From an uncultured Candidatus Saccharibacteria bacterium (GTDB lineage: Bacteria > Patescibacteriota > Minisyncoccia > Phycocordibacterales > UBA9973), in NCBI GenBank assembly GCA_964482735.1, contig CAYZYV010000001.1, positions 80,172 to 144,171 on the forward strand: DNA of 64,000 nt. Reading direction: 5' to 3'. A program made the translations under genes and the position numbers. This document shows, one piece after another, positions 5,631 through 63,199 of this stretch; the first letter of the stretch is position 1; each line of letters opens with the position of its first letter. The notes beneath the pieces were generated by a model. The model worked only from the letters and a program-made list of their open reading frames with translations, made no database searches and was not told where the DNA came from.

Positions 5631-5659
5631 TTAGTGATTTTTTTAAAAAATCTAAATTG

Positions 5660-5718
5660 AGCCCACGATCGGAATTGAACCGATGACCTCGCCCTTACCA
5701 TGGGTGTGCTCTACCAAC
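5660..5718 (-). pseudogene. tRNA-Thr(GGU)-like 3' two-thirds lacking a 5' acceptor/D arm (pseudo-tRNA)
   Basis: Nearly identical to 5782-5854 from the D-stem 3' strand through the acceptor 3' strand. That stretch is GGTAGAGCACACCCATGGTAAGGGCGAGGTCATCGGTTCAATTCCGATCGTGGGCT. The 5' part is replaced by the 40-bp repeat at 5719-5758. Confidence 0.5.
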
Positions 5719-5758
5719 TCCTGCCCGCAATGCTTAAAGCATAGCTTTTGCAGGCGGG
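5719..5758. repeat. 40-bp GC-rich repeat CCTGCCCGCAATGCYTAAAGCATAGCTTTTGCAGGCGGG (copy 1 of 3)
   Basis: Same sequence at 63161-63199, with a variant at 63123-63160. It contains the crossed complementary blocks CCTGC/GCAGG and CCGC/GCGG. Confidence 0.6.
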
Positions 5759-5781
5759 GAGCTACAAAACTTCATCCGCTG

Positions 5782-5854: not shown

Positions 5855-5944
5855 TTATGGTTTTATTATATTACTATTTTTTTGTCTTTTTTACAATTAT
5901 CCTTGCATTTTTTTGGATTTTGGGTTATTATGCTTTTTATACAT

Positions 5945-6009
5945 CGCGGGATAGAGAAAAGGTATCTCGCAAAGGAATAATAGCTCGAATGACCTAAGGT
6001 TATGAGCCT
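5945..6009 (+). repeat. Partial direct copy of the initiator-tRNA 5' end plus an inverted copy of its anticodon arm
   Basis: 5945-5969 is CGCGGGATAGAGAAAAGGTATCTCG and matches tRNA positions 1-25 at 6059 with one change. 5993-6009 is CCTAAGGTTATGAGCCT, the reverse complement of the anticodon arm at 6083-6099. Confidence 0.55.
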
Positions 6010-6129: not shown

Positions 6130-6212
6130 CATTTATTTATAACCTATTTTAATAGAGGGTTTTTAAGGTTGAAAATATATTAAAATATGCTATATTTATA
6201 TCGCACAGATAG

Positions 6213-6290
6213 ATGTTGGTGTAGCTGTTTTGGTTAGGTTATATGTGAAATATGTCGGTGTAGCTGTTTTGGTTAGGTTATATGTGAAAT
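6213..6290 (+). repeat. 2 x 39-bp tandem repeat, a degenerate copy of the tRNA-Met 5' end and leader
   Basis: Unit ATGTYGGTGTAGCTGTTTTGGTTAGGTTATATGTGAAAT occurs twice. The third unit runs into the real tRNA, ATGTCGGTGTAGCTCAGCTGGTTAGAGC. The D loop CAGC is replaced by GTTT in the decoy copies. Confidence 0.7.
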
Positions 6291-6651: not shown

Positions 6652-6725
6652 GCAGCCGTAGCTCAACTGGTTAGAGCACCCGCCTGTCACGCGGGAGGTT
6701 GAGGGTTCAAGTCCCTTCGACTGCG
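6652..6725 (+). tRNA. tRNA-Asp (anticodon GUC)
   Basis: GCAGCCG / TAGCTCAACTGGTTAGAGC / CCCGC-CTGTCAC-GCGGG / GAGGG-TTCAAGT-CCCTT / CGACTGC-G. Anticodon arm identical to E. coli tRNA-Asp. Confidence 0.85.
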
Positions 6726-6735
6726 CAAATAAAAA

Positions 6736-6765
6736 AAGAAGCCTAAATGGCTTCTTTTTTTCAGT
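6736..6765 (+). terminator. Rho-independent terminator after tRNA-Asp
   Basis: GAAGCC-TAAAT-GGCTTC followed by TTTTTTT. Confidence 0.55.
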
Positions 6766-7060
6766 CGAAGGGACTTGAAAGACGGAGCACGACGGTGCGA
6801 GGCGGGGTCGCGAGATTTTTCAGCAGAAAAATACTTGTGACCAAGTCCCTCGTTTTGTATTTTATTTATATATACTGGGTGATTTTGTTTTTTGCATAAG
6901 AAGGGACTTGAACCGGGGGCTTGCGAAGCCCGCGACAGCGGAAAGCCCGAGTGGAGGTCAATGAAGTGAGATATTTTATGAGTGATAACGAAATAAAATA
7001 TCCACGAGAGTGACCAAGTCCCCCATTTTGCCTGCGTAGGGACTTGAACAGCGGAGTCAT
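6766..7060. repeat. Non-coding block of tRNA-derived fragments and mini-elements (GGGACTTGAA motif five times, both orientations)
   Basis: Inverted copy of the tRNA-Asp 3' end (CAGTCGAAGGGACTTGAA) at 6762-6780. TIR-like GGGACTTGAA / TTCAAGTCCC pairs bracket cores at 6770-6848 and 6899-7020. Confidence 0.55.
6941..7012. repeat. ~62-bp hairpin element, copy A; copy B at 39911-39985
   Basis: GAGTGGRGGTC...GTGAGATATTTTATGAGTGRTAACGAAATAAAATATCCACGAGAGTGACC, about 90% identical between the two loci. Contains a perfect stem GATATTTTAT / ATAAAATATC. Confidence 0.6.
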
Positions 7061-7171
7061 ATTTTTCTAACAAGAAAAATAGACGAGTTAGTGACTAGAC
7101 AAAAATTTTTGACAAAAGTGTTTTTTGAGAATAAGCTATAATTAAAATAAACCTTTTAAAAACTTAATAAC

Positions 7172-10680: not shown

Positions 10681-10792
10681 TCCTTCTCCATTCCTTATTC
10701 GTGTCATTCGTTCCCGTTCGTGGATTTGCGTCGTGTTTGCCTCCTTCTATTCGTGTCATTCGTTCTCATTCGTGTATTTGTGTCGTGTTTGC
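10681..10792. repeat. 2 x ~52-bp tandem repeat in the gatC-gatA spacer
   Basis: CTCCTTCTATTCGTGTCATTCGTTCYCRTTCGTGKATTTGYGTCGTGTTTGC appears twice, and each unit contains TTCGTG sub-repeats. Confidence 0.55.
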
Positions 10793-16590: not shown

Positions 16591-17049
16591 CTAGCAGGTT
16601 GCATCTCCAGAAGCCAAAGTATTTCCTGTTGTTTGTTTTGAAGCCCCCGTTGAATCTACACACCAAGAATTAGAGCTGCTTGTTTTTAAAGGCATAGAAA
16701 CTGCCCACGCAGCACCACCTGTGGTAACTGAGCATACCCCAGTAGATGAACCACTCGCTGATTCTGCTGAAGCAAAAGCACTCCTAATAGTTGCATCTGT
16801 GAACACCCCCGTTCCAGCTGTATCACAAGTCCCATCTGCACTATAATACAATGCAGAACCATAGTTATTGTTTGTATCGTAATACATTTCTGCTTGAGCT
16901 CTCATGTTCGATAAGTTATTTTTAATCGCAGCATCTGCTCCTTTGTTTCTAGCACTATTTAATGATGCTAAAACAACAGATGACAAGATACCAATGATCG
17001 CAATAACAACCAACAATTCGATCAATGTAAAACCTTTGTTTTTGTTCAT
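16591..17049 (-). CDS. Type IV major pilin, paralog 1
   Basis: MNKNKGFTLIELLVVIAIIGILSSVVLASLNSARNKGADAAIKNNL: prepilin leader and N-methyl-Phe motif. Terminator AACAACCCTGCTCGGGTTGTT at 16546-16580. Confidence 0.8.
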   Translation of the reverse strand: MNKNKGFTLIELLVVIAIIGILSSVVLASLNSARNKGADAAIKNNLSNMRAQAEMYYDTNNNYGSALYYSADGTCDTAGTGVFTDATIRSAFASAESASGSSTGVCSVTTGGAAWAVSMPLKTSSSNSWCVDSTGASKQTTGNTLASGDATC

Positions 17050-17168
17050 ATTTATATAAAAATTGAATTCAATTTAACGACCATAGTAATATGTTATATT
17101 ATATCATTCTTTGTATATAAAAAGCAAAATACCCAAGCTTTTAACTTGAGTATTTTTATTCCTAACTA

Positions 17169-17624
17169 TTATGCACCGCAGTCTCCATCCGAATTTGAAT
17201 CTGTACCGGAAACTGAAGCCCCAGTCGAATCAACACACCAGCTACCTCCTGCTTTTAATGCAGCAGATGCGGACCAGGAACTAGCTTTTGCTCCACTCGT
17301 TCCACCCATTACACAAGTAGGAGCAGAGTTTGCAGACGTAATGGAAGCTATCATTGATGTTATGGTAGGGTCCAAGAAGACGCTTGTTGCTGCCGTACAA
17401 CCAGAGGCAGGAAGTGTAGCAACTGTCGCGCTGCTATATCCAGAATTTGTATCATAATACATTTCTGCTTGTGGTCTCATATTTGCCAAGTTGTTTTTAA
17501 TCGCAGCATCTGCTCCTTTATTTCTAGCACTGTTTAATGATGCCAAAACAACTGAGGACAAGATACCAATGATCGCAATAACAACCAACAATTCGATCAA
17601 TGTAAAACCTTTGTTTTTGTTCAT
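17169..17624 (-). CDS. Type IV major pilin, paralog 2
   Basis: N-terminal 48 aa identical to paralog 1, C-terminus divergent. Upstream 80-bp promoter block repeated. Confidence 0.8.
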   Translation of the reverse strand: MNKNKGFTLIELLVVIAIIGILSSVVLASLNSARNKGADAAIKNNLANMRPQAEMYYDTNSGYSSATVATLPASGCTAATSVFLDPTITSMIASITSANSAPTCVMGGTSGAKASSWSASAALKAGGSWCVDSTGASVSGTDSNSDGDCGA

Positions 17625-17742
17625 ATTTATATAAAAATTGAATTCAATTTAACGACCATAGTAATATGTTATATTATATCATTCTTTGTATATAAAAAGC
17701 AAAACCCTCAAGTTTAAATTGAGGGTTTTATATATTTTGCTT

Positions 17743-18192
17743 TTAGCAATCGTAATCGTTGGCTCCTAGGTATCCTGTTATCTGTTTTGAAGCCCCTGTA
17801 GAATCTACGCACCATGAATTGGCAGAGCTTGTCTTTAAAGGAGAAGAGGCTGCCCAACTACCAGCTTGAGAATGACATATTACAGTAGTAGATGTTCCGG
17901 CGGTAGCTGGAGCTGTAACCACAGAAGTTGCTCCAGCGGCACTTTTTGCTGATTCCAACATAGCAGCCACAGGGCTGGTTGTTGTAGTACACAACGTCGC
18001 ATAACTATTGCTATTGTCGTCATAGTGCATCTCAGCTTGTGCTCTGATGTTCGATAAGTTGTTTTTAATCGCAGCATCTGCTCCTTTATTTCTAGCACTG
18101 TTTAATGATGCCAAAACAACTGAGGACAAGATACCAATGATTGCAATAACAACCAACAATTCGATCAATGTAAAACCTTTATTTTTGTTCAT
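17743..18192 (-). CDS. Type IV major pilin, paralog 3
   Basis: Same N-terminus, C-terminus divergent with a Cys pair. Terminator AAACCCTCAA-GTTTAAAT-TGAGGGTTT at 17705-17735. Confidence 0.8.
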   Translation of the reverse strand: MNKNKGFTLIELLVVIAIIGILSSVVLASLNSARNKGADAAIKNNLSNIRAQAEMHYDDNSNSYATLCTTTTSPVAAMLESAKSAAGATSVVTAPATAGTSTTVICHSQAGSWAASSPLKTSSANSWCVDSTGASKQITGYLGANDYDC

Positions 18193-27340: not shown

Positions 27341-27467
27341 ATAAAATAAAAGATTAAATAAGGTTAATAAAGGACATTTATATTATCTCACAAAGACCAT
27401 TTTTGAGCAATTTAATGCCTTGTGATTAAAATAAACAACCTAGTAATCCATACTAAGTTCATTATTT

Positions 27468-27490
27468 TGTTGCGGAGACGCAGGGATTCG
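27468..27490 (-). repeat. 23-bp exact direct repeat of the tRNA-Ser 3' end (att-like remnant)
   Basis: GTTGCGGAGACGCAGGGATTCG is identical to 27666-27688. Shuffled fragments of the T arm also occur at 27588-27612. Confidence 0.6.
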
Positions 27491-27635
27491 GTCACGAGTT
27501 ACTAAATTTTTTATTTCGCTTTGCTCATAAAAAATAAAGTACTCTCGACCCCGACTCGGCAGTTTGAAAAGTTTTTCAAACTTTTCTCTGCCTGCGTCTT
27601 TCGAATCCCGCCCCGCACACATACGCCAAAAATCG

Positions 27636-27664
27636 ATACCTATGTAAACGGTATCGATTTTGGT
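27636..27664. terminator. Hairpin terminator downstream of tRNA-Ser
   Basis: AAATCGATACC-TATGTAAAC-GGTATCGATTT, an 11-bp stem with A/T runs on both sides. Confidence 0.45.
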
Positions 27665-27669
27665 CGTTG

Positions 27670-27756
27670 CGGAGACGCAGGGATTCGAACCCTGGAGCCT
27701 TTTTACGGGCTACCTCGTTAGCAGTGAGGCGCTTTCGACCACTCAGCCACGTCTCC
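27670..27756 (-). tRNA. tRNA-Ser (anticodon GCU)
   Basis: GGAGACG / TGGCTGAGTGGTCGAAAGCG / anticodon loop CTGCTAA / long variable arm GGTAGCCCGTAAAAAGGCTCC / AGGGTTCGAATCCCT / CGTCTCC-G. Confidence 0.85.
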
Positions 27757-28049: not shown

Positions 28050-29192
28050 TTAAAAATTAAACAAATTTGAGAAGAAAAGATATTCTCTTTTTAATTCTTC
28101 TTTACCATAAAGGCTAAACCATTTTTGAGCCCCGAGAGAGTACAATTCTCTAAAATTAGAATTAGCTTCTAATTCAGAGACGTTATGGCTTTCGTTTCCG
28201 AATAATTCTTCCAGTGTGTATTGCATACAATACGGCAACCTGTATGTCGCATCCGCGTCGATAAGAAAAGTCTCTGCTATACACATACTTATAGGAACAT
28301 ATTCGATTCTAATACCATCAATAAGGAAGCTGACACAACTAGAATCAACTAAGACCGTATCTTTTTTGATTTTATTATTTCTCGTAGTTAACATGAACTT
28401 TTTTAAATCTTCTAGTTTATAAAATCTTAGAAAGATTTTACCTTCTCCGGCAAAGGAGTAAATTTTCTTGTATTGATTCCAAAAGGCACTATAATCATCC
28501 AAGACAAAATCGGAATCCTTTGTAACAACTTCAGACGCAGGAGTTACATGTATTTCGTCAACAAGATTATTAGCCAACAAATAATTAGCTGTTTTCTCAA
28601 AATCACAAAAGTTAATTTTTGTGAGAGTAAACAAGCTAGTTACTTTTTTAGCGTAAGACCTCGCCTCTCTTAGCCCAACGACAGCCTCTTCAAAAGACTT
28701 GTTCGAATTTCTCTGAATGTTATGAACTTTTTCCATTCCATCTAAAGAGATGTCAATCCAATCAAATAAGAGACTGCTTTCTTTTAAAATCTTTCCTTGT
28801 TTAATATAAGAGCCATTATCCAATAATCCGATACAGATGTCTGGTCTTGTCTCTTTTATTTTTTTCATTACGGGAATATGCCATCCTTGTAAGATTCTCC
28901 CCTCGTGAACAACAAAAGAATTTTTTGGAAGCTGAGATACAATGTTTAAAATTTTTTGTTCTAAACAATTATTCTCAGATATAACACGAGAAGACTTTTC
29001 TCTTTGAAAAAAACAATGTTTGCAGTTAAGATTACAAGTCCTTTCCATTATCAGAGAACAGATTTTTGGATATTCTCTTTCTAGAGATTTTTCAAGGCCC
29101 CAAATGTTCTTGTGGAAAATATGACTTGAGGTCATTATTTGAAACCATTTATCTATTGTTCCCATATATCTAATTTTTAAATTTTTAAACAA
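28050..29192 (-). CDS. Radical SAM domain protein
   Basis: CNLNCKHC = CxxxCxxC cluster near the N-terminus. 380 aa. C-terminal region has scattered Cys but no canonical SPASM spacing. Confidence 0.7.
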   Translation of the reverse strand: MFKNLKIRYMGTIDKWFQIMTSSHIFHKNIWGLEKSLEREYPKICSLIMERTCNLNCKHCFFQREKSSRVISENNCLEQKILNIVSQLPKNSFVVHEGRILQGWHIPVMKKIKETRPDICIGLLDNGSYIKQGKILKESSLLFDWIDISLDGMEKVHNIQRNSNKSFEEAVVGLREARSYAKKVTSLFTLTKINFCDFEKTANYLLANNLVDEIHVTPASEVVTKDSDFVLDDYSAFWNQYKKIYSFAGEGKIFLRFYKLEDLKKFMLTTRNNKIKKDTVLVDSSCVSFLIDGIRIEYVPISMCIAETFLIDADATYRLPYCMQYTLEELFGNESHNVSELEANSNFRELYSLGAQKWFSLYGKEELKREYLFFSNLFNF

Positions 29193-29382
29193 CTTTTGAT
29201 TAAATTATAAATAAATATACTAATTGGTCAAATAAAGTCAGATAAAATAACAGATAAACGTTAATTTAATCATTGGTTTACAACGTGTTTTGTTAATATA
29301 CTATAGTGTTGTCAGTTTAGTTGACATTTTTAATTAATAGAATACAATATAATTATTAATCTTTTAGGAAAAATAAGAAAAA

Positions 29383-30120
29383 ATGAGCACAATTATTAAC
29401 ACCTTAATGGATCTTGGCCTTACAAACAAAGAAGCCAGTCTTTATTATGCCCTACTAAGGAAAGGAAGGTCTACTGTCCTAGAATTAGCCAAGGAATCTG
29501 GTCTTAAAAGGCCAACGGTTTATTTAACTTTGGATTCATTGAGAAATAAAGGTTTAATTTTAAAAATACCATACGCCAAGAAATCAGTTTATATAGCAAA
29601 GGAGCCGGACGAGTTTTTCAGAGATACTTACAACAAGATAAAGAGAGCTGGTGACAATCTGTCTCAAATAAAAGCCCTTTCTAAAAAGGAAGATAAGGTT
29701 TTTGTTAGATATTACGAAGGAGAGGGAGAGGTCAAAGAATCACTTTTCTACAGAATAGAAGAATTAAAAGGAACCGAAGACGTTGGTTTTTTTGCTAAAG
29801 CTGAAGAGATTAGTCCTTTTTTAATAAAATCATCACACCAATGGAGAGAAGAAAGTAAACACAGAAATATAAAAGTGAAAGGAATTGCTCCTTTTCACCC
29901 TACATTAGAAGAATTTAGAAAAACAGATAAAAATCTAGATCAAGTTTTTAAATCTATACCGATTAGTCTGTACTCTTCTAACTGTTCCATAGATGCCACT
30001 GATTTATTTGTAAGGATTGTTTTATTTAACGAAAATCAATCAGTTATTATAGAAAATAAAGAAATTGTAAAAACAATAAAACAAATTTTTAATATCTGTT
30101 GGGAAAGTATTAAAAATTAA
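29383..30120 (+). CDS. TrmB-family transcriptional regulator (sugar-specific HTH)
   Basis: N-terminal LGLTNKEASLYYALLRKGRSTVLELAKESGLKRPTVYLTLDSL, the TrmB wHTH pattern. Divergent from the radical-SAM gene. Confidence 0.55.
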   Translation: MSTIINTLMDLGLTNKEASLYYALLRKGRSTVLELAKESGLKRPTVYLTLDSLRNKGLILKIPYAKKSVYIAKEPDEFFRDTYNKIKRAGDNLSQIKALSKKEDKVFVRYYEGEGEVKESLFYRIEELKGTEDVGFFAKAEEISPFLIKSSHQWREESKHRNIKVKGIAPFHPTLEEFRKTDKNLDQVFKSIPISLYSSNCSIDATDLFVRIVLFNENQSVIIENKEIVKTIKQIFNICWESIKN

Positions 30121-30156
30121 TTATTTCTCAACGAGGTTTTTTGATATAATAATTCC

Positions 30157-30873
30157 ATGAGAATATCAGTTTTAATCATTGCGCATAATGAGGAAGAAAT
30201 AATTAAAAAATGTCTTTACTCTGCTATAAACCAAACCGTTAAACCAGATGAGATTATTTTAGTTGCCCATAATTGTACAGATAGGACGATTGAAATTGCT
30301 CAGGAGTTTAAAACAATAAAGATAATTCGATTTGATGGACCTCGAGGCACTGCTTACCCTAGAATAGAAGGATTGTCTCACGTATCGAATGAAAATGACA
30401 TAATTCTATGTATAGATGGTGATTGTGTAGCTAAAGAAAACTGGGTTGAAGAAATGTCGCACACTTTGAATCTCAACAACAACATTTTGGTTGGAAGTTA
30501 TATCAAATTTAAGGGCGATTTATTTTTATCAATTTCTAATATATTTAATAAAATAAAATGTAAAACTTCTGGAGAAAAAGCAGTTCGCTGGCTATGGGGA
30601 GGAAGTTTCGCCTTTTGGAATAAAGATAAGGATTTAGTAAAAAATATATTTGAAAAAACAATAGAATTATCAAGGGATTTACAACTTAGTAGAAATCCTG
30701 AAGACTTCTTACTTGCAAAGTTTTTAAAGAAAAAAGGAAACATAGAAATCACAAATAAAACTTTTGTGGTAGCTATGGCTAAAGAAAAATCTATTTTTGA
30801 ATCTTTCAAAAGGAATAGAGAGAATAACAAAAATGCTGAAAGGATAGAAAAATACTTTTTAACCTTAAAATAA
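30157..30873 (+). CDS. Family 2 glycosyltransferase
   Basis: VLIIAHNEEEII...DGDC: GT-A fold with DxD-like motif. Confidence 0.7.
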   Translation: MRISVLIIAHNEEEIIKKCLYSAINQTVKPDEIILVAHNCTDRTIEIAQEFKTIKIIRFDGPRGTAYPRIEGLSHVSNENDIILCIDGDCVAKENWVEEMSHTLNLNNNILVGSYIKFKGDLFLSISNIFNKIKCKTSGEKAVRWLWGGSFAFWNKDKDLVKNIFEKTIELSRDLQLSRNPEDFLLAKFLKKKGNIEITNKTFVVAMAKEKSIFESFKRNRENNKNAERIEKYFLTLK

Positions 30874-36240: not shown

Positions 36241-36273
36241 CTAACCAAAACAGCTAAGGACGGAAGTCTGGTT
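36241..36273 (-). repeat. Degenerate duplicate of the tRNA-Ile 5' end plus 5' flank (decoy copy with a GTTTT D loop)
   Basis: CTAACCAAAACAGCTAAGGACGGAAGTCTGGTT at 36241-36273 versus CTAACCAGCTGAGCTAAGGACGGAAGTCTGGTT at 36169-36201. Same CAGC to GTTT substitution as in the tRNA-Met decoys. Confidence 0.6.
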
Positions 36274-38855: not shown

Positions 38856-39299
38856 ATGGCGATATTTTTGGACAACAGAAAAGCTCACTTCAACTACTCT
38901 ATAGAGGATACTTTTGAGGCAGGGATAGAATTGCTTGGTTTTGAAGTGAAATCAATTAAAAAAGGTCAGGGTAATCTAAACTCGGCTTTTTGTATCGTAA
39001 GAGGTGGAGAGGCTTATATAATAGGACTCCACGTTCCACCATATCAGCCAAACAATACTGACACAACTTATGACCCAGACAGAACCAGAAAGCTCTTGCT
39101 ATCAAAAAAAGAAATTAAGAAACTAGCCGACAAGGATGACATTAAAGGTTTGACTCTAGTCCCCCTTTCAATGTATAGTAAGGGTCCATACATCAAAGTC
39201 TCTGTAGCGGTTGCTCGTGGTAAAAAAGTTTTTGATAAAAGGGAAACAATTAAAAACCGTGACTTGGACAGAGAAATGGCTAGAGAGTATAAAAGATAG
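38856..39299 (+). CDS. smpB: SsrA-binding protein
   Basis: 147 aa. NRKAHFNYSIEDTFEAGIELLGFEVKSIK and the C-terminal basic tail match SmpB. tmRNA follows 16 nt downstream. Confidence 0.9.
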   Translation: MAIFLDNRKAHFNYSIEDTFEAGIELLGFEVKSIKKGQGNLNSAFCIVRGGEAYIIGLHVPPYQPNNTDTTYDPDRTRKLLLSKKEIKKLADKDDIKGLTLVPLSMYSKGPYIKVSVAVARGKKVFDKRETIKNRDLDREMAREYKR

Positions 39300-39315: not shown

Positions 39316-39704
39316 GGGGATGATCGGCTTCGACAAGTGGAATCATCTTATATATGCATGTAAAGTACTCAGGAATCTTTTGAAACTTCCTGAAAAAGAC
39401 TAAGTGCAAACAAAGTCGCAAAGGTTGCATCACCCTATGCTTCGGCATTCGGTAATCCAGCTTTCGCTTTCGCCTAAACGGCCAGAGCGATGTCTGCTCT
39501 TTTGACACCCGATATAAAGAGTAGGCATCATTCATCGGGTTAAGGTTTTGCAGGTGCTTGTCGCAAAATCTGACAAGTTAAAGCTCGATATTTATCTTTT
39601 TTGTGTGTTCTCTAGGATAAATATTTAAAACCAATGAACACAATAAACATGTAGATTTATTTAGGAGTTTCATTTGCACGCGGGTTCGATTCCCGCCATC
39701 TCCA
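39316..39704 (+). ncRNA. ssrA: tmRNA (ssrA)
   Basis: 5' end GGGGATGATCGGCTTCGAC and 3' end GCGGGTTCGATTCCCGCCATCTCCA form a tRNA-Ala-like acceptor/T arm with the G3:U70 wobble. Resume codon GCA at 39406 opens the tag ORF ANKVAKVASPYASAFGNPAFAFA, with stop TAA at 39475-39477. Confidence 0.8.
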
Positions 39705-39711
39705 CACGTTG

Positions 39712-39748
39712 AAAAAAGAGTCCGTCGCAAGACGGCCTTTTTTCTTGT
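39712..39748 (+). terminator. Terminator after tmRNA
   Basis: CCGTC-GCAA-GACGG followed by CCTTTTTTC. Confidence 0.5.
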
Positions 39749-39751
39749 GTG

Positions 39752-40068
39752 GAGATGAGCGAGCAAACTGCTTTGCTCGCGTGCGGGAATCGAAAGGCTT
39801 TTCCGTACGAACGAAGTGAGGTGGAAAAGCACCCGCGACCGTAGGGCGAGATTCCCGTTTCAATGATGGCGGGAATCGAACCGAGCTCCGACAAAGTCCG
39901 CGAAGCGGCCGGAGCGAGTGGGGGTCGAGCGAGTGAGATATTTTATGAGTGGTAACGAAATAAAATATCCACGAGAGTGACCGATGAACCTATTCTGCTT
40001 TGCTCGCGTGCGGGAATCGAAAGGCTTTTCCGTACGAACGAAGTGAGGTGGAAAAGCACCCGCGACCG
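39752..40068. repeat. Repeat-dense non-coding block downstream of tmRNA
   Basis: Holds inverted copies of the tmRNA 3' end (39752-39762, 39873-39893) and a 9-bp hairpin GCGAGCAAA-CTGC-TTTGCTCGC. It also holds a 73-bp exact direct repeat at 39772-39842 and 39998-40068, plus hairpin element copy B (39911-39985). Confidence 0.65.
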
Positions 40069-40155
40069 TTTAATATTACATAATGGCTGGGATAGAGCTG
40101 GGGAGCTCAAATTGTGTCTATAGGGAGAGAATTAATTATTTAATTCTCTCTTTTT

Positions 40156-41919
40156 TTATTTCACCAATTTCTCTAATTTTTTAATATCTTCCTCAATTGC
40201 TTTAATTCCATTTTCAAAAAACTTAGGATTTCTTATGTTTATACCTATATCTCCAAAAATATCTTCAGGACTTTTACTACCTCCAGCTTTTAGAAATTGT
40301 TCTATTTTGTCTTTAAAATTTTTATCTTTCTTGTATTCATAATACAAAGCATTACTTATAAGACAACCATAAGCATACGAATAGACATAAAAGAATGTCC
40401 GGATATGCCTCCACGATACAAAGAAGTAACCATCTTCGTCAGTAAGATCAAACAAAGGGCCCAGATAATTTTTCATATGCTTATTCATTATTTTGGCGAT
40501 ATCTTCTTTTGTGCAATAACCATCTTTTCTAATCGTTTCGTGCAATTCTTTCTCAAAATTAAAACAAGCTATTTGTCTAAAGATCGTAGCAATACCATCA
40601 TTTATCCTATTGTGTAGGGCAACTATTTTTTCCTTATCAGAAAGTTTTTCATATATTTCTTCAAAAACAAAATTTTCAAACAAAGTACTGGCAGTTTCTG
40701 CGACAGATATTGTGTAATCAGCATAAATAGCAGGTTGTGTATGGGCCATCTCTGTATGGATGGCATGCCCCATTTCATGTCCTATAGTTAAAACAGAATT
40801 ATAGTTGTCTGCATGATTTAGCAAGACAAAAGTTGGCAAACCATACCCTCCCCAACAGTAAGCTCCTCCCCTTTTCCCTTTTTTAGGATAAACATCTATT
40901 TGCCCATTCTTTAAATAATTGGTAAAAATTTCCAAGTATTTTTCATCAATTTTTTTATATGTATCTGAAAGTAGTTTAACTGTTTCTTCAAAGGAAAAGT
41001 TTTTATTAATTGTTCCGACAGAAGCAGACCTGTCGGCATAGGTTAATCTTTTTTCTTTTAACAACTTAGCTTTTATTTTGTAAAAACGGTGAGCCACTTT
41101 AAAATTATCAGTTACTACCTTTACTAAATTCTCAACGACAGCCTCATCGTTCTCATAACTTTTAACAGTGGCCTGATAAGGCGTTTTAAATCCCCTTAAT
41201 TCATCAGATATTTTCTTCGTGGTATAAACAGCATTAATTTCTGCTTCGCTAAAGTCAGACGCTTCCATTAGTTTTTTATTAATCAAACTATTTAAAGACC
41301 TCCTATCCTTTGTTTTAAGATTAGACAGTATTCCAGAAGCTTTGCTTATAGGAATTAATTCATTTTTAAATTTTATTTCCTGTTTGCTTAAAACCTTGTC
41401 CACACCTTCTGTCCACATTGAAGTCGAAGGGGTGCTTAATAAATTAATCATCTTTTCTTCTGCTTCAGAAAGTGAATACCTTGACTCTTCAAAAACTTTT
41501 TTTAAGAAGTAGTGATATTTGCTAAGAGATTTATCTTTTAAAAACATTCTTTGATCTTTAATATCTATTTTACCCAAAGCCAAAACAAAAAATAAAGTTC
41601 TGTTGCTTATTTTATTTAACCTTTCTTGATATAAATTAATTTTTGCACTTAAAATTTTGTTATCTGAATCAATATCTTTTCTTAAATGAAAATAAAAATA
41701 AGGTTTAGCAAAACGAGGTGTAGTGTTTAATTTTTCATAATCCTTACAAGCCTGTAGTAGACTATTTGGATTAGTAGTATAACTAAAATTATTACGATAT
41801 TTTTTTTCAAAAGATATCGCCTCTTTCTCAAAATCATTAAAATCCTTTTCTATCTGTGGATCATTGTCGTTTTTATAAAAAAGCTTAAAATTCCAGTTTG
41901 TCTTGATATTATTCTTCAT
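40156..41919 (-). CDS. pepF: Oligoendopeptidase F (M3 family)
   Basis: 587 aa. HEMGHAIH zinc motif and the downstream Glu in the M3B arrangement. Confidence 0.85.
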   Translation of the reverse strand: MKNNIKTNWNFKLFYKNDNDPQIEKDFNDFEKEAISFEKKYRNNFSYTTNPNSLLQACKDYEKLNTTPRFAKPYFYFHLRKDIDSDNKILSAKINLYQERLNKISNRTLFFVLALGKIDIKDQRMFLKDKSLSKYHYFLKKVFEESRYSLSEAEEKMINLLSTPSTSMWTEGVDKVLSKQEIKFKNELIPISKASGILSNLKTKDRRSLNSLINKKLMEASDFSEAEINAVYTTKKISDELRGFKTPYQATVKSYENDEAVVENLVKVVTDNFKVAHRFYKIKAKLLKEKRLTYADRSASVGTINKNFSFEETVKLLSDTYKKIDEKYLEIFTNYLKNGQIDVYPKKGKRGGAYCWGGYGLPTFVLLNHADNYNSVLTIGHEMGHAIHTEMAHTQPAIYADYTISVAETASTLFENFVFEEIYEKLSDKEKIVALHNRINDGIATIFRQIACFNFEKELHETIRKDGYCTKEDIAKIMNKHMKNYLGPLFDLTDEDGYFFVSWRHIRTFFYVYSYAYGCLISNALYYEYKKDKNFKDKIEQFLKAGGSKSPEDIFGDIGINIRNPKFFENGIKAIEEDIKKLEKLVK

Positions 41920-61932: not shown

Positions 61933-61966
61933 CATCAAAAAATCCCCGATTGGGGGTTTTTTGATG
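61933..61966. repeat. 34-bp palindromic hairpin CATCAAAAAATCCCCGATTGGGGGTTTTTTGATG (copy 1)
   Basis: Near-identical copy at 63066-63099. The two bracket ORF 61975-63039. Confidence 0.65.
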
Positions 61967-61974
61967 ATAGGTGA

Positions 61975-63039: not shown

Positions 63040-63065
63040 AATTTTTTATCTTCGGACATCAAAAA

Positions 63066-63099
63066 ATCCCCGATTGGGGATTTTTTGATGATAGAGATT
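63066..63099. repeat. 34-bp palindromic hairpin (copy 2)
   Basis: CATCAAAAAATCCCCGATTGGGGATTTTTTGATG. Confidence 0.65.
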
Positions 63100-63122: not shown

Positions 63123-63199
63123 CCTGCCCGCAATGCTTTCGCATAGGCGATGCAAGCGGGCCTGCCCGCAATGCCTAAAGCATAGCTTTTGCAGGCGGG
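63123..63199. repeat. Two tandem units of the 40-bp CCTGCCCGCAATGC...GCRRGCGGG repeat (copies 2 and 3)
   Basis: 63123-63160 and 63161-63199. The second unit is nearly identical to 5719-5758. Confidence 0.6.

Follow-up and report, generated by a model that had tools for sequence, protein, structure and literature searches.

Structured units bordered by copies of gene ends behind tmRNA and tRNA genes of Patescibacteria: possible small non-autonomous integrative cassettes

Units behind the tmRNA gene and two tRNA genes

We analyzed a 64,000-nt stretch of a patescibacterial contig (CAYZYV010000001.1, positions 80,172 to 144,171; hereafter the window), focusing on the small structured units that follow its gene for transfer-messenger RNA (tmRNA; ssrA). 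The genes of the window form a core set like that of the Candidate Phyla Radiation (CPR), including ribosomal proteins, SecY, a type IV pilus set, FtsH and SmpB. The G+C content of the window is ∼33%, and it reaches 50-57% in the ∼360 nt behind the tmRNA terminator, up to the terminator of a pepF-like gene. Three units lie there in tandem, all on the plus strand (U1, 39747-39857; U2, 39865-39990; U3, 39995-40069). Other than spurious antisense frames, 39708-40120 contains no open reading frame (ORF). The tmRNA family RF00023 takes in 39316-39705 only, leaving the units outside, and ARAGORN gives the tag peptide as ANKVAKVASPYASAFGNPAFAFA. Sister units follow the genes for transfer RNA (tRNA)-Asp and tRNA-Ser (Table 1).

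The layout is alike at all three genes. The 3' end of the gene (segment A) is followed by a palindromic terminator (T), an inverted copy of the gene end (A'), a structured core and a direct copy of A. In many units A' is interrupted by a small hairpin (P0), and cores of the U2 type end in GTGAC. A' and the distal A pair to form a closing stem, P1 (5' strand X', 3' strand X), and the units fold as branched hairpins, with z-scores down to -6.5. The termini differ from locus to locus, being GCGGGAATCGAA at tmRNA, GGGACTTGAA...CAAGTCCC at tRNA-Asp and GGGATTCGAA...CGAATCCCTGCGTCTCCGCAAC at tRNA-Ser. Segment A of the tmRNA gene is both duplicated and inverted downstream, and 20 nt of it also flank a cassette with an NYN-domain gene in a related locus, L003 (L numbers are our labels for comparison loci and contigs). 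From these copies, segment A is probably the attachment site of the tmRNA units.

A first-pass annotation, made from the window alone, had described inverted copies of the tmRNA 3' end downstream of the gene. These are present, far beyond chance. One, GTGTGGAGATG (39747-39757), belongs to a pair of 20 nt at 80% identity (I2) that wraps around the terminator; the other, GATGGCGGGAATCGAACC (39865-39882), is an exact 18-nt complement of 39683-39700 (I1). The motif GCGGGAATCGAA occurs three times, at 39783, 39869 and 40010. A direct repeat given earlier as 73 bp and exact is indeed exact, and its length is 75 nt (39768-39842 and 39995-40069). Likewise, a hairpin element said to share 62 bp with the tRNA-Asp flank is shared, over a different extent: 50 nt with one mismatch (6966-7015 and 39933-39982; no matches in 100 shuffles), inside a similarity of 95 nt at 81% (repeat D3).

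The three tmRNA units are not equivalent, and they are partly degenerate, the distal copy of U2 having decayed and U3 being truncated. In U1, P0 is placed between the complement of the acceptor and the complement of the T-stem, and X' (GCGGGAATCGAA) is the complement of the tmRNA T-loop plus the 3' strand of the T-stem. The closest relatives of its core are the second units of L157 and L124, and its distal copy retains 12 nt in L003 (GATTCCCGCCAT). U2 consists of stem P1, two GC-rich hairpins, a long AU hairpin (UGAG/CGAAA loop), a GGUCG/UGACC base helix and the GTGAC end (39977-39981). U3 holds the 3' half of P0, X' and the U1 core up to CGACCGT, without a distal copy of A. We searched the window with a covariance model (R1) built from 29 cores and obtained four significant matches, all directly 3' of tRNA-Ser, tRNA-Asp or tmRNA. 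U1 scores only 13 bits with R1 and belongs to the other unit type.

Each of the tRNA-Asp units begins with GGGACTTGAA, the complement of the Asp T-arm, and the first two end in GTGAC followed directly by CAAGTCCC. Their R1 scores are 41.7 bits (6771-6848), 77.8 bits (6904-7021) and only 10.7 bits (7040-7090). At tRNA-Ser the distal copy (27469-27490) reproduces exactly 22 nt of the gene's 3' end, compared to only 8-9 degenerate nt at the tmRNA units.

At tmRNA, A, T1 and the inverted copy of A make up one long palindrome. Near-perfect palindromes of this kind, centred on the terminator loop here and in L025, would be expected if the units were a functionless by-product of DNA metabolism, in which template switching or fold-back at the palindromic terminator copies the gene end and selfish hairpins then accumulate. 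Template switching is known to give triplications with an inverted middle copy, and the genome has other small hairpin insertions (5720-5758 and 63161-63199), both of which count in favor of such an origin. The comparisons below bear on it as well.

A family of folded modules in Patescibacteria

With a 25-base pattern taken from the U2 core, we searched one genome per species (185,579 species). The pattern identified 53 loci, all in metagenome-assembled genomes (MAGs) of CPR/Patescibacteria. We use the organism names given in the MAG records, several of which received the label Saccharibacteria from a bulk pipeline; where a name goes below the phylum, it is mostly Paceibacteria, Parcubacteria, Kaiser-, Lloyd-, Taylor- and Yonathbacteria. 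For 41 of the 57 instances of the core motif, a tRNA or tmRNA gene on the same strand ends no more than 700 nt upstream, and in most of the 41, GTGAC is 141-200 nt away from the tRNA end. Besides tmRNA, at least 15 tRNA identities serve as neighbours (Ser, Tyr, Leu, Arg, Gln, Glu, Gly, Thr, Asp, Lys, His, Val, Ala, Pro and Phe).

The closing stem in these loci always matches the neighbouring tRNA, with outer stems (GGATTCG/CGAATCC, GGACTTG/CAAGTCC, TTTGTG/CACAAA and others) that vary accordingly. Directly after GTGAC, an exact 19-22-nt copy of the unit's own tRNA 3' end, starting from C56, is seen in 12 of the 41 instances, and a copy of at least 8 nt in 22. The distal copy often runs on into the tRNA's own 3' flank, after which comes a second terminator, as would be expected of an original gene end that was displaced (L158, L148, L159, L022 and L028). 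In a second class of units only CACAAA is duplicated, starting from the discriminator, and P1 is UUUGUG/CACAAA. P1 is retained in every class, this one included, and this favors a folded recombination site, since a double-stranded attachment site would not need the complement. The first-pass annotation had considered a cluster of non-autonomous elements with T-arm-like termini; these data support the cluster of elements, while the termini are not fixed T-arm-like sequences and change with the neighbouring tRNA.

In 441 kb of related loci, model R1 picks out 82 members, and 56 of them are no farther than 700 nt 3' of a tRNA or tmRNA gene on the same strand, where 6.7% would be expected by chance. 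We also counted gene-end copies, defined as at least 9 nt of the gene's last 24 nt recurring just downstream: among 202 distinct tRNA/tmRNA loci, an inverted copy is present in 79 and a direct copy in 77, compared to 2 and 3 of 223 shuffled tails, in a sample that was selected by core motif genome-wide and is unbiased as to units for the tmRNA set alone. The inverted copy is not kept significantly better than the distal direct copy (30 versus 34 loci). In Rfam 15, only the tmRNA and tRNAs of the window exceed the gathering threshold, and 39690-40160 and 27440-27680 give nothing meaningful at E values up to 10. No description was found in the literature searched on CPR tRNA-linked elements, integrons in Patescibacteria and folded attP sites at tRNA genes. 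The units are a family of structured modules, widespread in CPR and undescribed in Rfam or in that literature.

Another reading is a guided form of homing, comparable to the omega-RNA scaffold of TnpB with a guide taken from its flank or to the two-strand guides of IS110 bridge RNAs. In this reading the core would be an RNA or single-stranded DNA scaffold for a nuclease or recombinase supplied in trans and the flanks (X' and the copy of the tRNA end) would act as guides. At its fullest this would be a guide-directed integration platform, with arms that read the tRNA or tmRNA 3' end, a few base changes sufficing to retarget a cassette, and integron-like arrays as the outcome. As in TnpB/IscB omega-RNAs, IS110 bridge RNAs and TIGR arrays, a conserved structured scaffold here abuts target-identical, locus-specific sequence, ∼20 variable nt following at a fixed junction. 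X' covaries with the target over >15 tRNA types, one genome has 118-nt-identical cores behind tRNA-Asp and tRNA-Leu with different outer flanks (L031 and L037), and no protein is linked in cis. However, X' and X are paired with one another and so are not available as guides, genes for TnpB, IscB, IS110 or Tas were not seen near any unit, and the units do not resemble the omega-RNA or HEARO-type families of Rfam. Insertion of the IS200/IS605 type is not known to yield a long target duplication, another point against guidance. TIGR arrays, whose 36-nt units combine 9-nt spacers with two repeats of 8-12 nt in alternation and which neighbour a Nop-domain gene (PMC12045711), were tried as a candidate and rejected, as the units here measure 80-200 nt and are mutually different. 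We judge guided homing to be distinctly unlikely, and the full guide-directed platform no less so.

Evidence for structural selection comes from the alignments. Among the 82 members, 95.9% of cells are paired, compared to 80.9% in shuffles and ∼45% with slid partners, and 19 of the 24 pairs of the R1-type core show compensatory change; this alignment was fitted to the model, which inflates pairing, ∼25 of its members were missed by the pattern, and an independent MAFFT alignment agrees. The basal pair of the long hairpin is G:U in 70 sequences, A:U in 6 and G:C in 0. This pair, together with the orientation of the units, points to the tRNA-sense strand as the one that folds. Judged by these comparisons, a folded single strand in tRNA-sense orientation is under selection, be it RNA or single-stranded DNA. 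No replication-strand bias of the folded strand was detected, the units occurring on both strands and GC skew being uniform across the window.

The same holds for the U1 type, in which 20 of 32 pairs are compensatory among 14 sequences from different metagenomes (alignment A3). In this type P0 is capped by a CUGC loop, P2 reads CUUUUC...GAAAAG, and a further hairpin of 5 bp has the loop (U)GUA(A); a mini-hairpin looped by UACU is often present as well. U1 thus belongs to a second, tmRNA-linked unit type. Conserved, covarying cores, the GTGAC junction and the fixed orientation relative to the tRNA are not explained by template switching or fold-back, nor is the fixed place of P0 within the inverted copy and its conserved loop. 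An origin of the units as mere by-products is therefore very improbable.

The main rival to a mobile element is that the units are structured non-coding RNA genes, that is, tRNA or tmRNA paralogues in which the core has replaced the body, expressed by read-through from the strong promoter of the tRNA or tmRNA gene, for the benefit of the host or of an element. RNase P and a 3' enzyme might process such an RNA, A' and A rebuilding an acceptor/T-stem minihelix. Multi-helix folds, strong covariation, conserved loops and the wobble pair that is never G:C on the tRNA-sense strand all argue for an RNA, as do the modular insertion of a domain (L016 versus L047) and compensatory changes between the close relatives L085 and L119. 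In L025, the full-length inverted copy, P0 and distal copy mimic an acceptor stem, a hairpin at the D-arm position and a T-stem, and units are retained at orthologous tRNAs of several species. On the other hand, every unit sits behind an intrinsic terminator, and a scan for promoters found no sigma-70-like site. The distal copy has often lost its acceptor part with P1 still in place (L013, L034 and L043), the UUUGUG/CACAAA class shows no tRNA mimicry, and Rfam offers no match. Moreover, a third of the related tmRNA loci among the matches listed are unit-free, unit content varies between strains, and an RNA gene would not account for a P1 whose 3' strand copies the end of the neighbouring gene and continues into its flank. 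Taken together, we regard RNA genes as an unlikely explanation.

The inserted domain is optional and ∼107 nt long. It lies between GGG and UCG of the core, starts with UGAGAA, ends with ACAGAAUCUGUAAGAU, and is carried by one of two close genomes (L047, minus strand, versus L016 6600-6726); the comparison also touches L054 and L017. A GAAUC-UGUAA-GAUUC hairpin recurs as the terminal hairpin of other unit types.

Three known classes of structured element were tried and rejected. The UGAG...CGAAA arrangement is hammerhead-like; by eye, and against the motif as generally known, the essential C3 and G5 positions are absent. A retron non-coding RNA would have a similar topology (a closing stem with a short and a long hairpin), but the neighbours are smpB and pepF, no reverse transcriptase lies directly downstream, and the closing stem copies a tRNA. 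A riboswitch or other element of the 5' untranslated region was dismissed on the orientation of the gene that follows, which shares the strand of the units at tRNA-Ser and tRNA-Asp and lies on the opposite strand at tmRNA.

Turnover and insertion at tRNA and tmRNA ends

Comparison of related loci shows that the content behind these genes changes. In L003-L005, whose SmpB is identical, an 880-bp cassette sits precisely within the tmRNA T-loop, between the two copies of a 20-nt duplication (CGATTCCCGCCATCTCCACA and the same minus one T). It carries the NYN-domain gene and a strong sigma-70-like promoter sequence (TTGACT-17-TATAAT), with neither inverted copy nor core. Beyond it come the terminator and U1 as in the window; U2 and U3 are missing, bar degenerate traces. 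At tRNA-Asp, the three-unit array of the window is replaced in L069-L071 (identical PhoH-like gene) by another unit type plus a 171-aa ORF. The unit there (L069 1-790, also L070 and L071) ends in CTCGCGGT joined directly to CCCTTCGACTGCGCA, and the ORF has no Pfam match.

Among the matches listed, 67 metagenomic tmRNA loci share the last 30 nt of the gene; 22 have both copies of the gene end, 11 the inverted copy only, 10 the direct copy only and 24 none. Some of the unit-free loci have a plain terminator, and others a large-serine-recombinase island right after ...CCAC. L111 and L125 have flanks that are 92-95% identical and different units at one place. Arrays of different unit types, each bounded by tRNA-end copies, occur in L012, L014, L027, L045 and L036, and one or two small genes lie between units in L049, L052, L055 and L018.

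Large serine recombinase genes run antisense into the 3' end of tmRNA or tRNA-Ser, their last codons overlapping the gene (Table 1). The island of L030 also has terminase, ParB-methylase, XRE and ImmA-like genes. The gene content and position of these islands indicate that CPR prophages or islands use the same tRNA and tmRNA genes as the units. In L042 and L030 an intact older unit is separated from the gene by the recombinase island, so the units are not pieces of such islands. Two points raised in the first-pass annotation are borne out here: tRNA and tmRNA 3' ends are live insertion sites in this lineage, as seen from the NYN cassette in the T-loop and the recombinase islands of relatives, and comparison across relatives does turn up loci with inserted islands.

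That annotation had gone on to read the repeats as remains of successive integration and excision, that is, as attL/attR leftovers and fragments of larger integrase islands or prophages once seated in the tmRNA gene. The islands just described, the NYN cassette with its 20-nt flanking duplication and the partial decay of U2 and U3 are what such scars would predict. However, cores of 100-130 nt recur, covarying, in 53 representative-genome loci and 82 model matches, unit length is stereotyped, coding remnants are lacking and, as noted, intact older units lie outside the islands of L042 and L030. Two core patterns had no matches in 2.9 million viral contigs, and hence there is no sign of a phage attP origin. 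The units are conserved structured families across CPR, with stereotyped size, covariation and conserved loops, which argues that they are not the debris of decayed islands. Conservation and covariation largely refute the scar reading already, and we find it scarcely credible. Conserved sequence of a functional-RNA kind in relatives, which had been named as an outcome that would speak against scars, is seen to the extent that conservation is constrained by structure; it does not extend to a static content, since units turn over.

The earlier statement that no integrase is present also holds. Of 30 window ORFs scanned with Pfam, none has an integrase or recombinase domain. Of two batches of ORFs neighbouring the units (148 and 116), the first, from 29 other loci, was scanned in the same way, and neither a recombinase nor a transposase family recurs in it; only housekeeping families do. 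A simple motif screen for reverse transcriptases and serine recombinases near the units raised three weak flags, none of them consistent.

Several further observations concern the same genes. Metagenomic contigs of the organism (L001, L002 and L006) end in or right behind the tmRNA gene (window 39616-39706), which suggests that strain heterogeneity or repeats at the tmRNA array break assemblies. On the 5' side of tRNA-Ser, genes for a radical SAM protein, a TrmB-like regulator and a family 2 glycosyltransferase (window 28050-30873) are missing from L074-L078, which are otherwise >99% identical over the tRNA-Ser locus; this is a second variable spot beside that gene. Between two tRNA-Thr genes lies a tRNA-Thr-like pseudogene (5658-5775, minus strand; 92% identical to the neighbouring tRNA-Thr over 62 nt), which is called by neither ARAGORN nor Rfam. 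Its D-loop is split by a 39-nt hairpin, CCTGCCCGCAATGCTTAAAGCATAGCTTTTGCAGGCGGG (5720-5758), of which a 97% copy is found at 63161-63199 and a shorter look-alike inside a tmRNA unit of L125. Partial copies of tRNA 5' ends occur upstream of genes (5934-5972, 6208-6285 and 36241-36273): the 5' part of tRNA-Met, a tandem pair of 39-nt copies ahead of the second tRNA-Met, and the 5' end of tRNA-Ile together with the flank upstream of it. The pattern is unlike that of the 3'-end units.

Elsewhere in the window, three tandem paralogous genes of ∼150 aa (16591-18192) contain 270-nt repeats at 94% and 68% identity. They lie in a complete type IV pilus cluster (13.3-25.5 kb) with PilM, a PilB/T-like ATPase, PilC, a prepilin peptidase and several proteins with the N-methyl motif. 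A 45-nt tandem repeat (91%) lies just past the 5' end of an amidase (GatA-like) gene (10696-10792), and two terminator-like hairpins (CATCAAAAAATCCCCGATTGGGGGTTTTTTGATG; 61933-61970 and 63057-63094) that are 97% identical lie 1.1 kb apart in the ribosomal protein region.

Table 1. Positions of the genes, unit parts and related insertions discussed in the text (window coordinates unless a comparison locus is named)
Feature	Position	Strand	Basis or remark
tRNA-Asp gene	6652-6726	+	window
Sister array behind tRNA-Asp: terminator, then three units	6727-7105	+	repeat D9, folds, R1
Sister unit behind tRNA-Ser	27469-27668	-	terminator, inverted copy, canonical core 27484-27608; R1 127.4 bits; fold z = -6.06
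tRNA-Ser gene	27669-27756	-	window
smpB	38856-39299		directly 5' of ssrA; SmpB Pfam match
tmRNA gene (ssrA)	39316-39705	+	ARAGORN; Rfam RF00023 139.6 bits (threshold 47)
Segment A, tmRNA 3' end from T-loop C56 to end, CGATTCCCGCCATCTCCACAC	39687-39707	+	repeat analysis
T1, palindromic bidirectional intrinsic terminator	39708-39746	+	stem 39722-39735, T-run 39738-39744; terminator scan
U1 inverted copy of tmRNA acceptor 3' strand, GTGTGGAGATG	39747-39757	+	conserved as GTGGAGATG in many tmRNA loci
U1 P0 hairpin, GCGAGCAAA-CTGC-TTTGCTCGC	39759-39780	+	alignment A3: 9 bp, 8 compensatory, conserved CUGC loop
U1 X', 5' strand of closing stem P1, GCGGGAATCGAA	39783-39794	+	P1 pairs with TCCCGC
U1 core: P2 GGCTTTTCC...GGAAAAGC, 39796-39830; P3 CGACC-GTA-GGGCG, 39836-39848	39795-39849	+	alignment A3
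U1 distal partial direct copy of A, GATTCCCG	39850-39857	+	sequence
U2 inverted copy of tmRNA T-arm, GATGGCGGGAATCGAACC	39865-39882	+	repeat analysis
U2, widespread core family (type B)	39872-39990	+	R1 59.6 bits, E 2e-13; fold z = -2.97; covariation
U2 degenerate distal copy of A, CGATGAACC	39982-39990	+	junction of GTGAC and CGATGAACC also in L111, L133
U3, exact 75-nt copy of 39768-39842	39995-40069	+	repeats D1, D7
pepF-like gene	40156-41919	opposite to tmRNA array	convergent with tmRNA array
NYN cassette	L003 5143-6023 (also L004, L005)		188-aa NYN-domain gene, Pfam E 2.9e-13
Large serine recombinase loci	L042 2269-3876; L030 69-1394; L086, L093, L100, L103, L138		the last five just behind tmRNA

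Proposed integration from a folded strand

The units are best described as putative small non-autonomous integrative elements at tRNA and tmRNA genes, with a modest chance that they are a categorically new kind. For the tmRNA stretch, the reading we favor, at roughly even confidence, is that of an array, by now partly decayed, of three small integrative cassettes that are non-coding and non-autonomous and are stacked in the tmRNA 3' end, and in which a hairpin would rebuild the attachment site by analogy with integron attC sites and the attP site of CTX phage. A cassette would comprise A, T, A' and the core, set before a further copy of A. Here A would be a replacement for the gene's 3' end from the T-loop onward, and T, being inside the cassette, would keep the tRNA or tmRNA gene terminated after insertion. 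The displaced older A immediately follows the core, so that A' and A would pair in the folded strand, P1 thereby rebuilding the attachment site in double-stranded form at the base of the core. The folded hairpin would then be the recombination site of the cassette. A recombinase would insert the cassette at the T-loop or 3' end of a tRNA or tmRNA gene, and possibly excise it; with none among the 30 window ORFs scanned and none recurrent among the 148 ORFs near units, this enzyme would have to act in trans. In one possible course, a circular single strand with an X'/X hairpin stem would undergo strand exchange within X into the chromosomal X, giving the order X, rest, X', core, X. Newcomers would enter beside the gene, displacing older cassettes outward to decay.

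Integration of a folded strand would explain several features at once. The complement of the attachment site lies beside the core in every class, and of the distal copy at least the first 6-8 nt survive, also where the rest has decayed. It would also account for the second terminator behind the distal copy (L158, L148 and L159) and for arrays that grow outward from the gene.

Several findings weigh against the cassette model. The ORF scans yielded no recombinase for the units, and neither an excised circle nor a precise empty site was observed; the predicted empty tRNA-Ser site had no metagenome matches, which is uninformative. Where the unit meets the tRNA copy depends on its type (C56, 60/61 or the discriminator), so that several enzyme specificities or a tolerant mechanism would be needed, and the model leaves unexplained how the inverted copy comes to match each new tRNA. 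With 4-5 helices, conserved loops, tandem G.A loops and the optional 107-nt domain, the folds go beyond known DNA recombination sites and look RNA-like. Units at orthologous tRNAs persist across species (L016/L047 and L022/L050/L061), which fits a host function too. Selection of the loci by core motif, the tmRNA set excepted, should also be borne in mind.

Among known systems, the tycheposons of Prochlorococcus are kilobase-sized islands that form arrays in the 3' parts of tRNA genes, each with its own recombinase and a replacement 3' end; partial tRNA copies separate successive insertions, newcomers displace older ones outward and degenerate remnants are left (bioRxiv 10.1101/2020.12.28.424599). 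Like these and other tRNA/tmRNA islands (Williams 2002 sublocation classes), the units sit in the 3' part of the gene, would supply a replacement end and form arrays separated by copies. They differ from such islands, which bring a tyrosine or serine recombinase of their own, in being 100-200 nt long and gene-less, with an inverted copy of the attachment site, a structured core and no recombinase in cis. Put in terms of classical islands and prophages, a repeat of the tRNA 3' end bounds the element (exact over 19-22 nt in the 12 of 41 instances given above), whereas an integrase inside the element is absent.

In integrons, cassettes end in an imperfect hairpin that is recognized as a folded single strand, its outer stem being the core sequence of the insertion site. 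Integron arrays grow at one fixed platform, the cassettes can be very small and the enzyme is encoded outside them. The units share with integron cassettes the array at a fixed platform, a terminal hairpin that would rebuild the site and an enzyme that would be elsewhere. Unlike attC, however, they have no GTTRRRY core, their stem follows the tRNA, their centre is conserved and branched, and most carry a terminator only. Neither RYYYAAC nor GTTRRRY sites were found, the platform is a tRNA or tmRNA gene rather than attI beside intI, and there is no tyrosine recombinase among the tested ORFs.

CTX phage is one of the Xer-dependent integrating elements, which have inverted dif-like sites and use XerC/XerD. 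It reportedly integrates from a circular single strand with two inverted copies of the target site ∼90 nt apart, and integration of this type is said to give the order X, rest, X', spacer, X. The units have this same order. They are unlike CTX in that the target is the T-loop or tRNA end instead of dif, the spacer is a conserved structured core and the 'rest' is a terminator only.

Finally, the units resemble miniature inverted-repeat transposable elements (MITEs), repetitive extragenic palindromes and bacterial interspersed mosaic elements (REP/BIME) and palindromes derived from IS200/IS605 in being small, non-coding, hairpin-forming and multi-copy, and in forming GC-rich islands in an AT-rich genome. 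Those elements have fixed terminal sequences, short or no target duplications and many intergenic sites, and are mobilized in trans. In the units, by contrast, the termini follow the tRNA and so depend on the locus, duplications reach 20-40 nt, and the places of occurrence are 3' of tRNA or tmRNA genes. The long duplications, a left-end hairpin (the terminator) that is free to vary, and the lack of an Rfam match or of a corresponding Pfam family that recurs nearby also set them apart from IS200/IS605 and omega-RNA systems.

The genomes of CPR/Patescibacteria are tiny and have few recognized mobile elements, and the exchange and storage of accessory genes in these bacteria are poorly understood. 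The units point to tRNA and tmRNA genes as docking platforms for arrays of miniature cassettes, some empty and some with one or two small genes. Should the fold prove to be a recombination site, the units would join integrons and CTX-type phages as a third independent case of folded-single-strand recombination, with a target set by a short, changeable stem; if it is an RNA, the units would form a new and abundant class of tRNA-linked structured RNAs. Either way, the sequence models can be used to annotate regions where assemblers often break.

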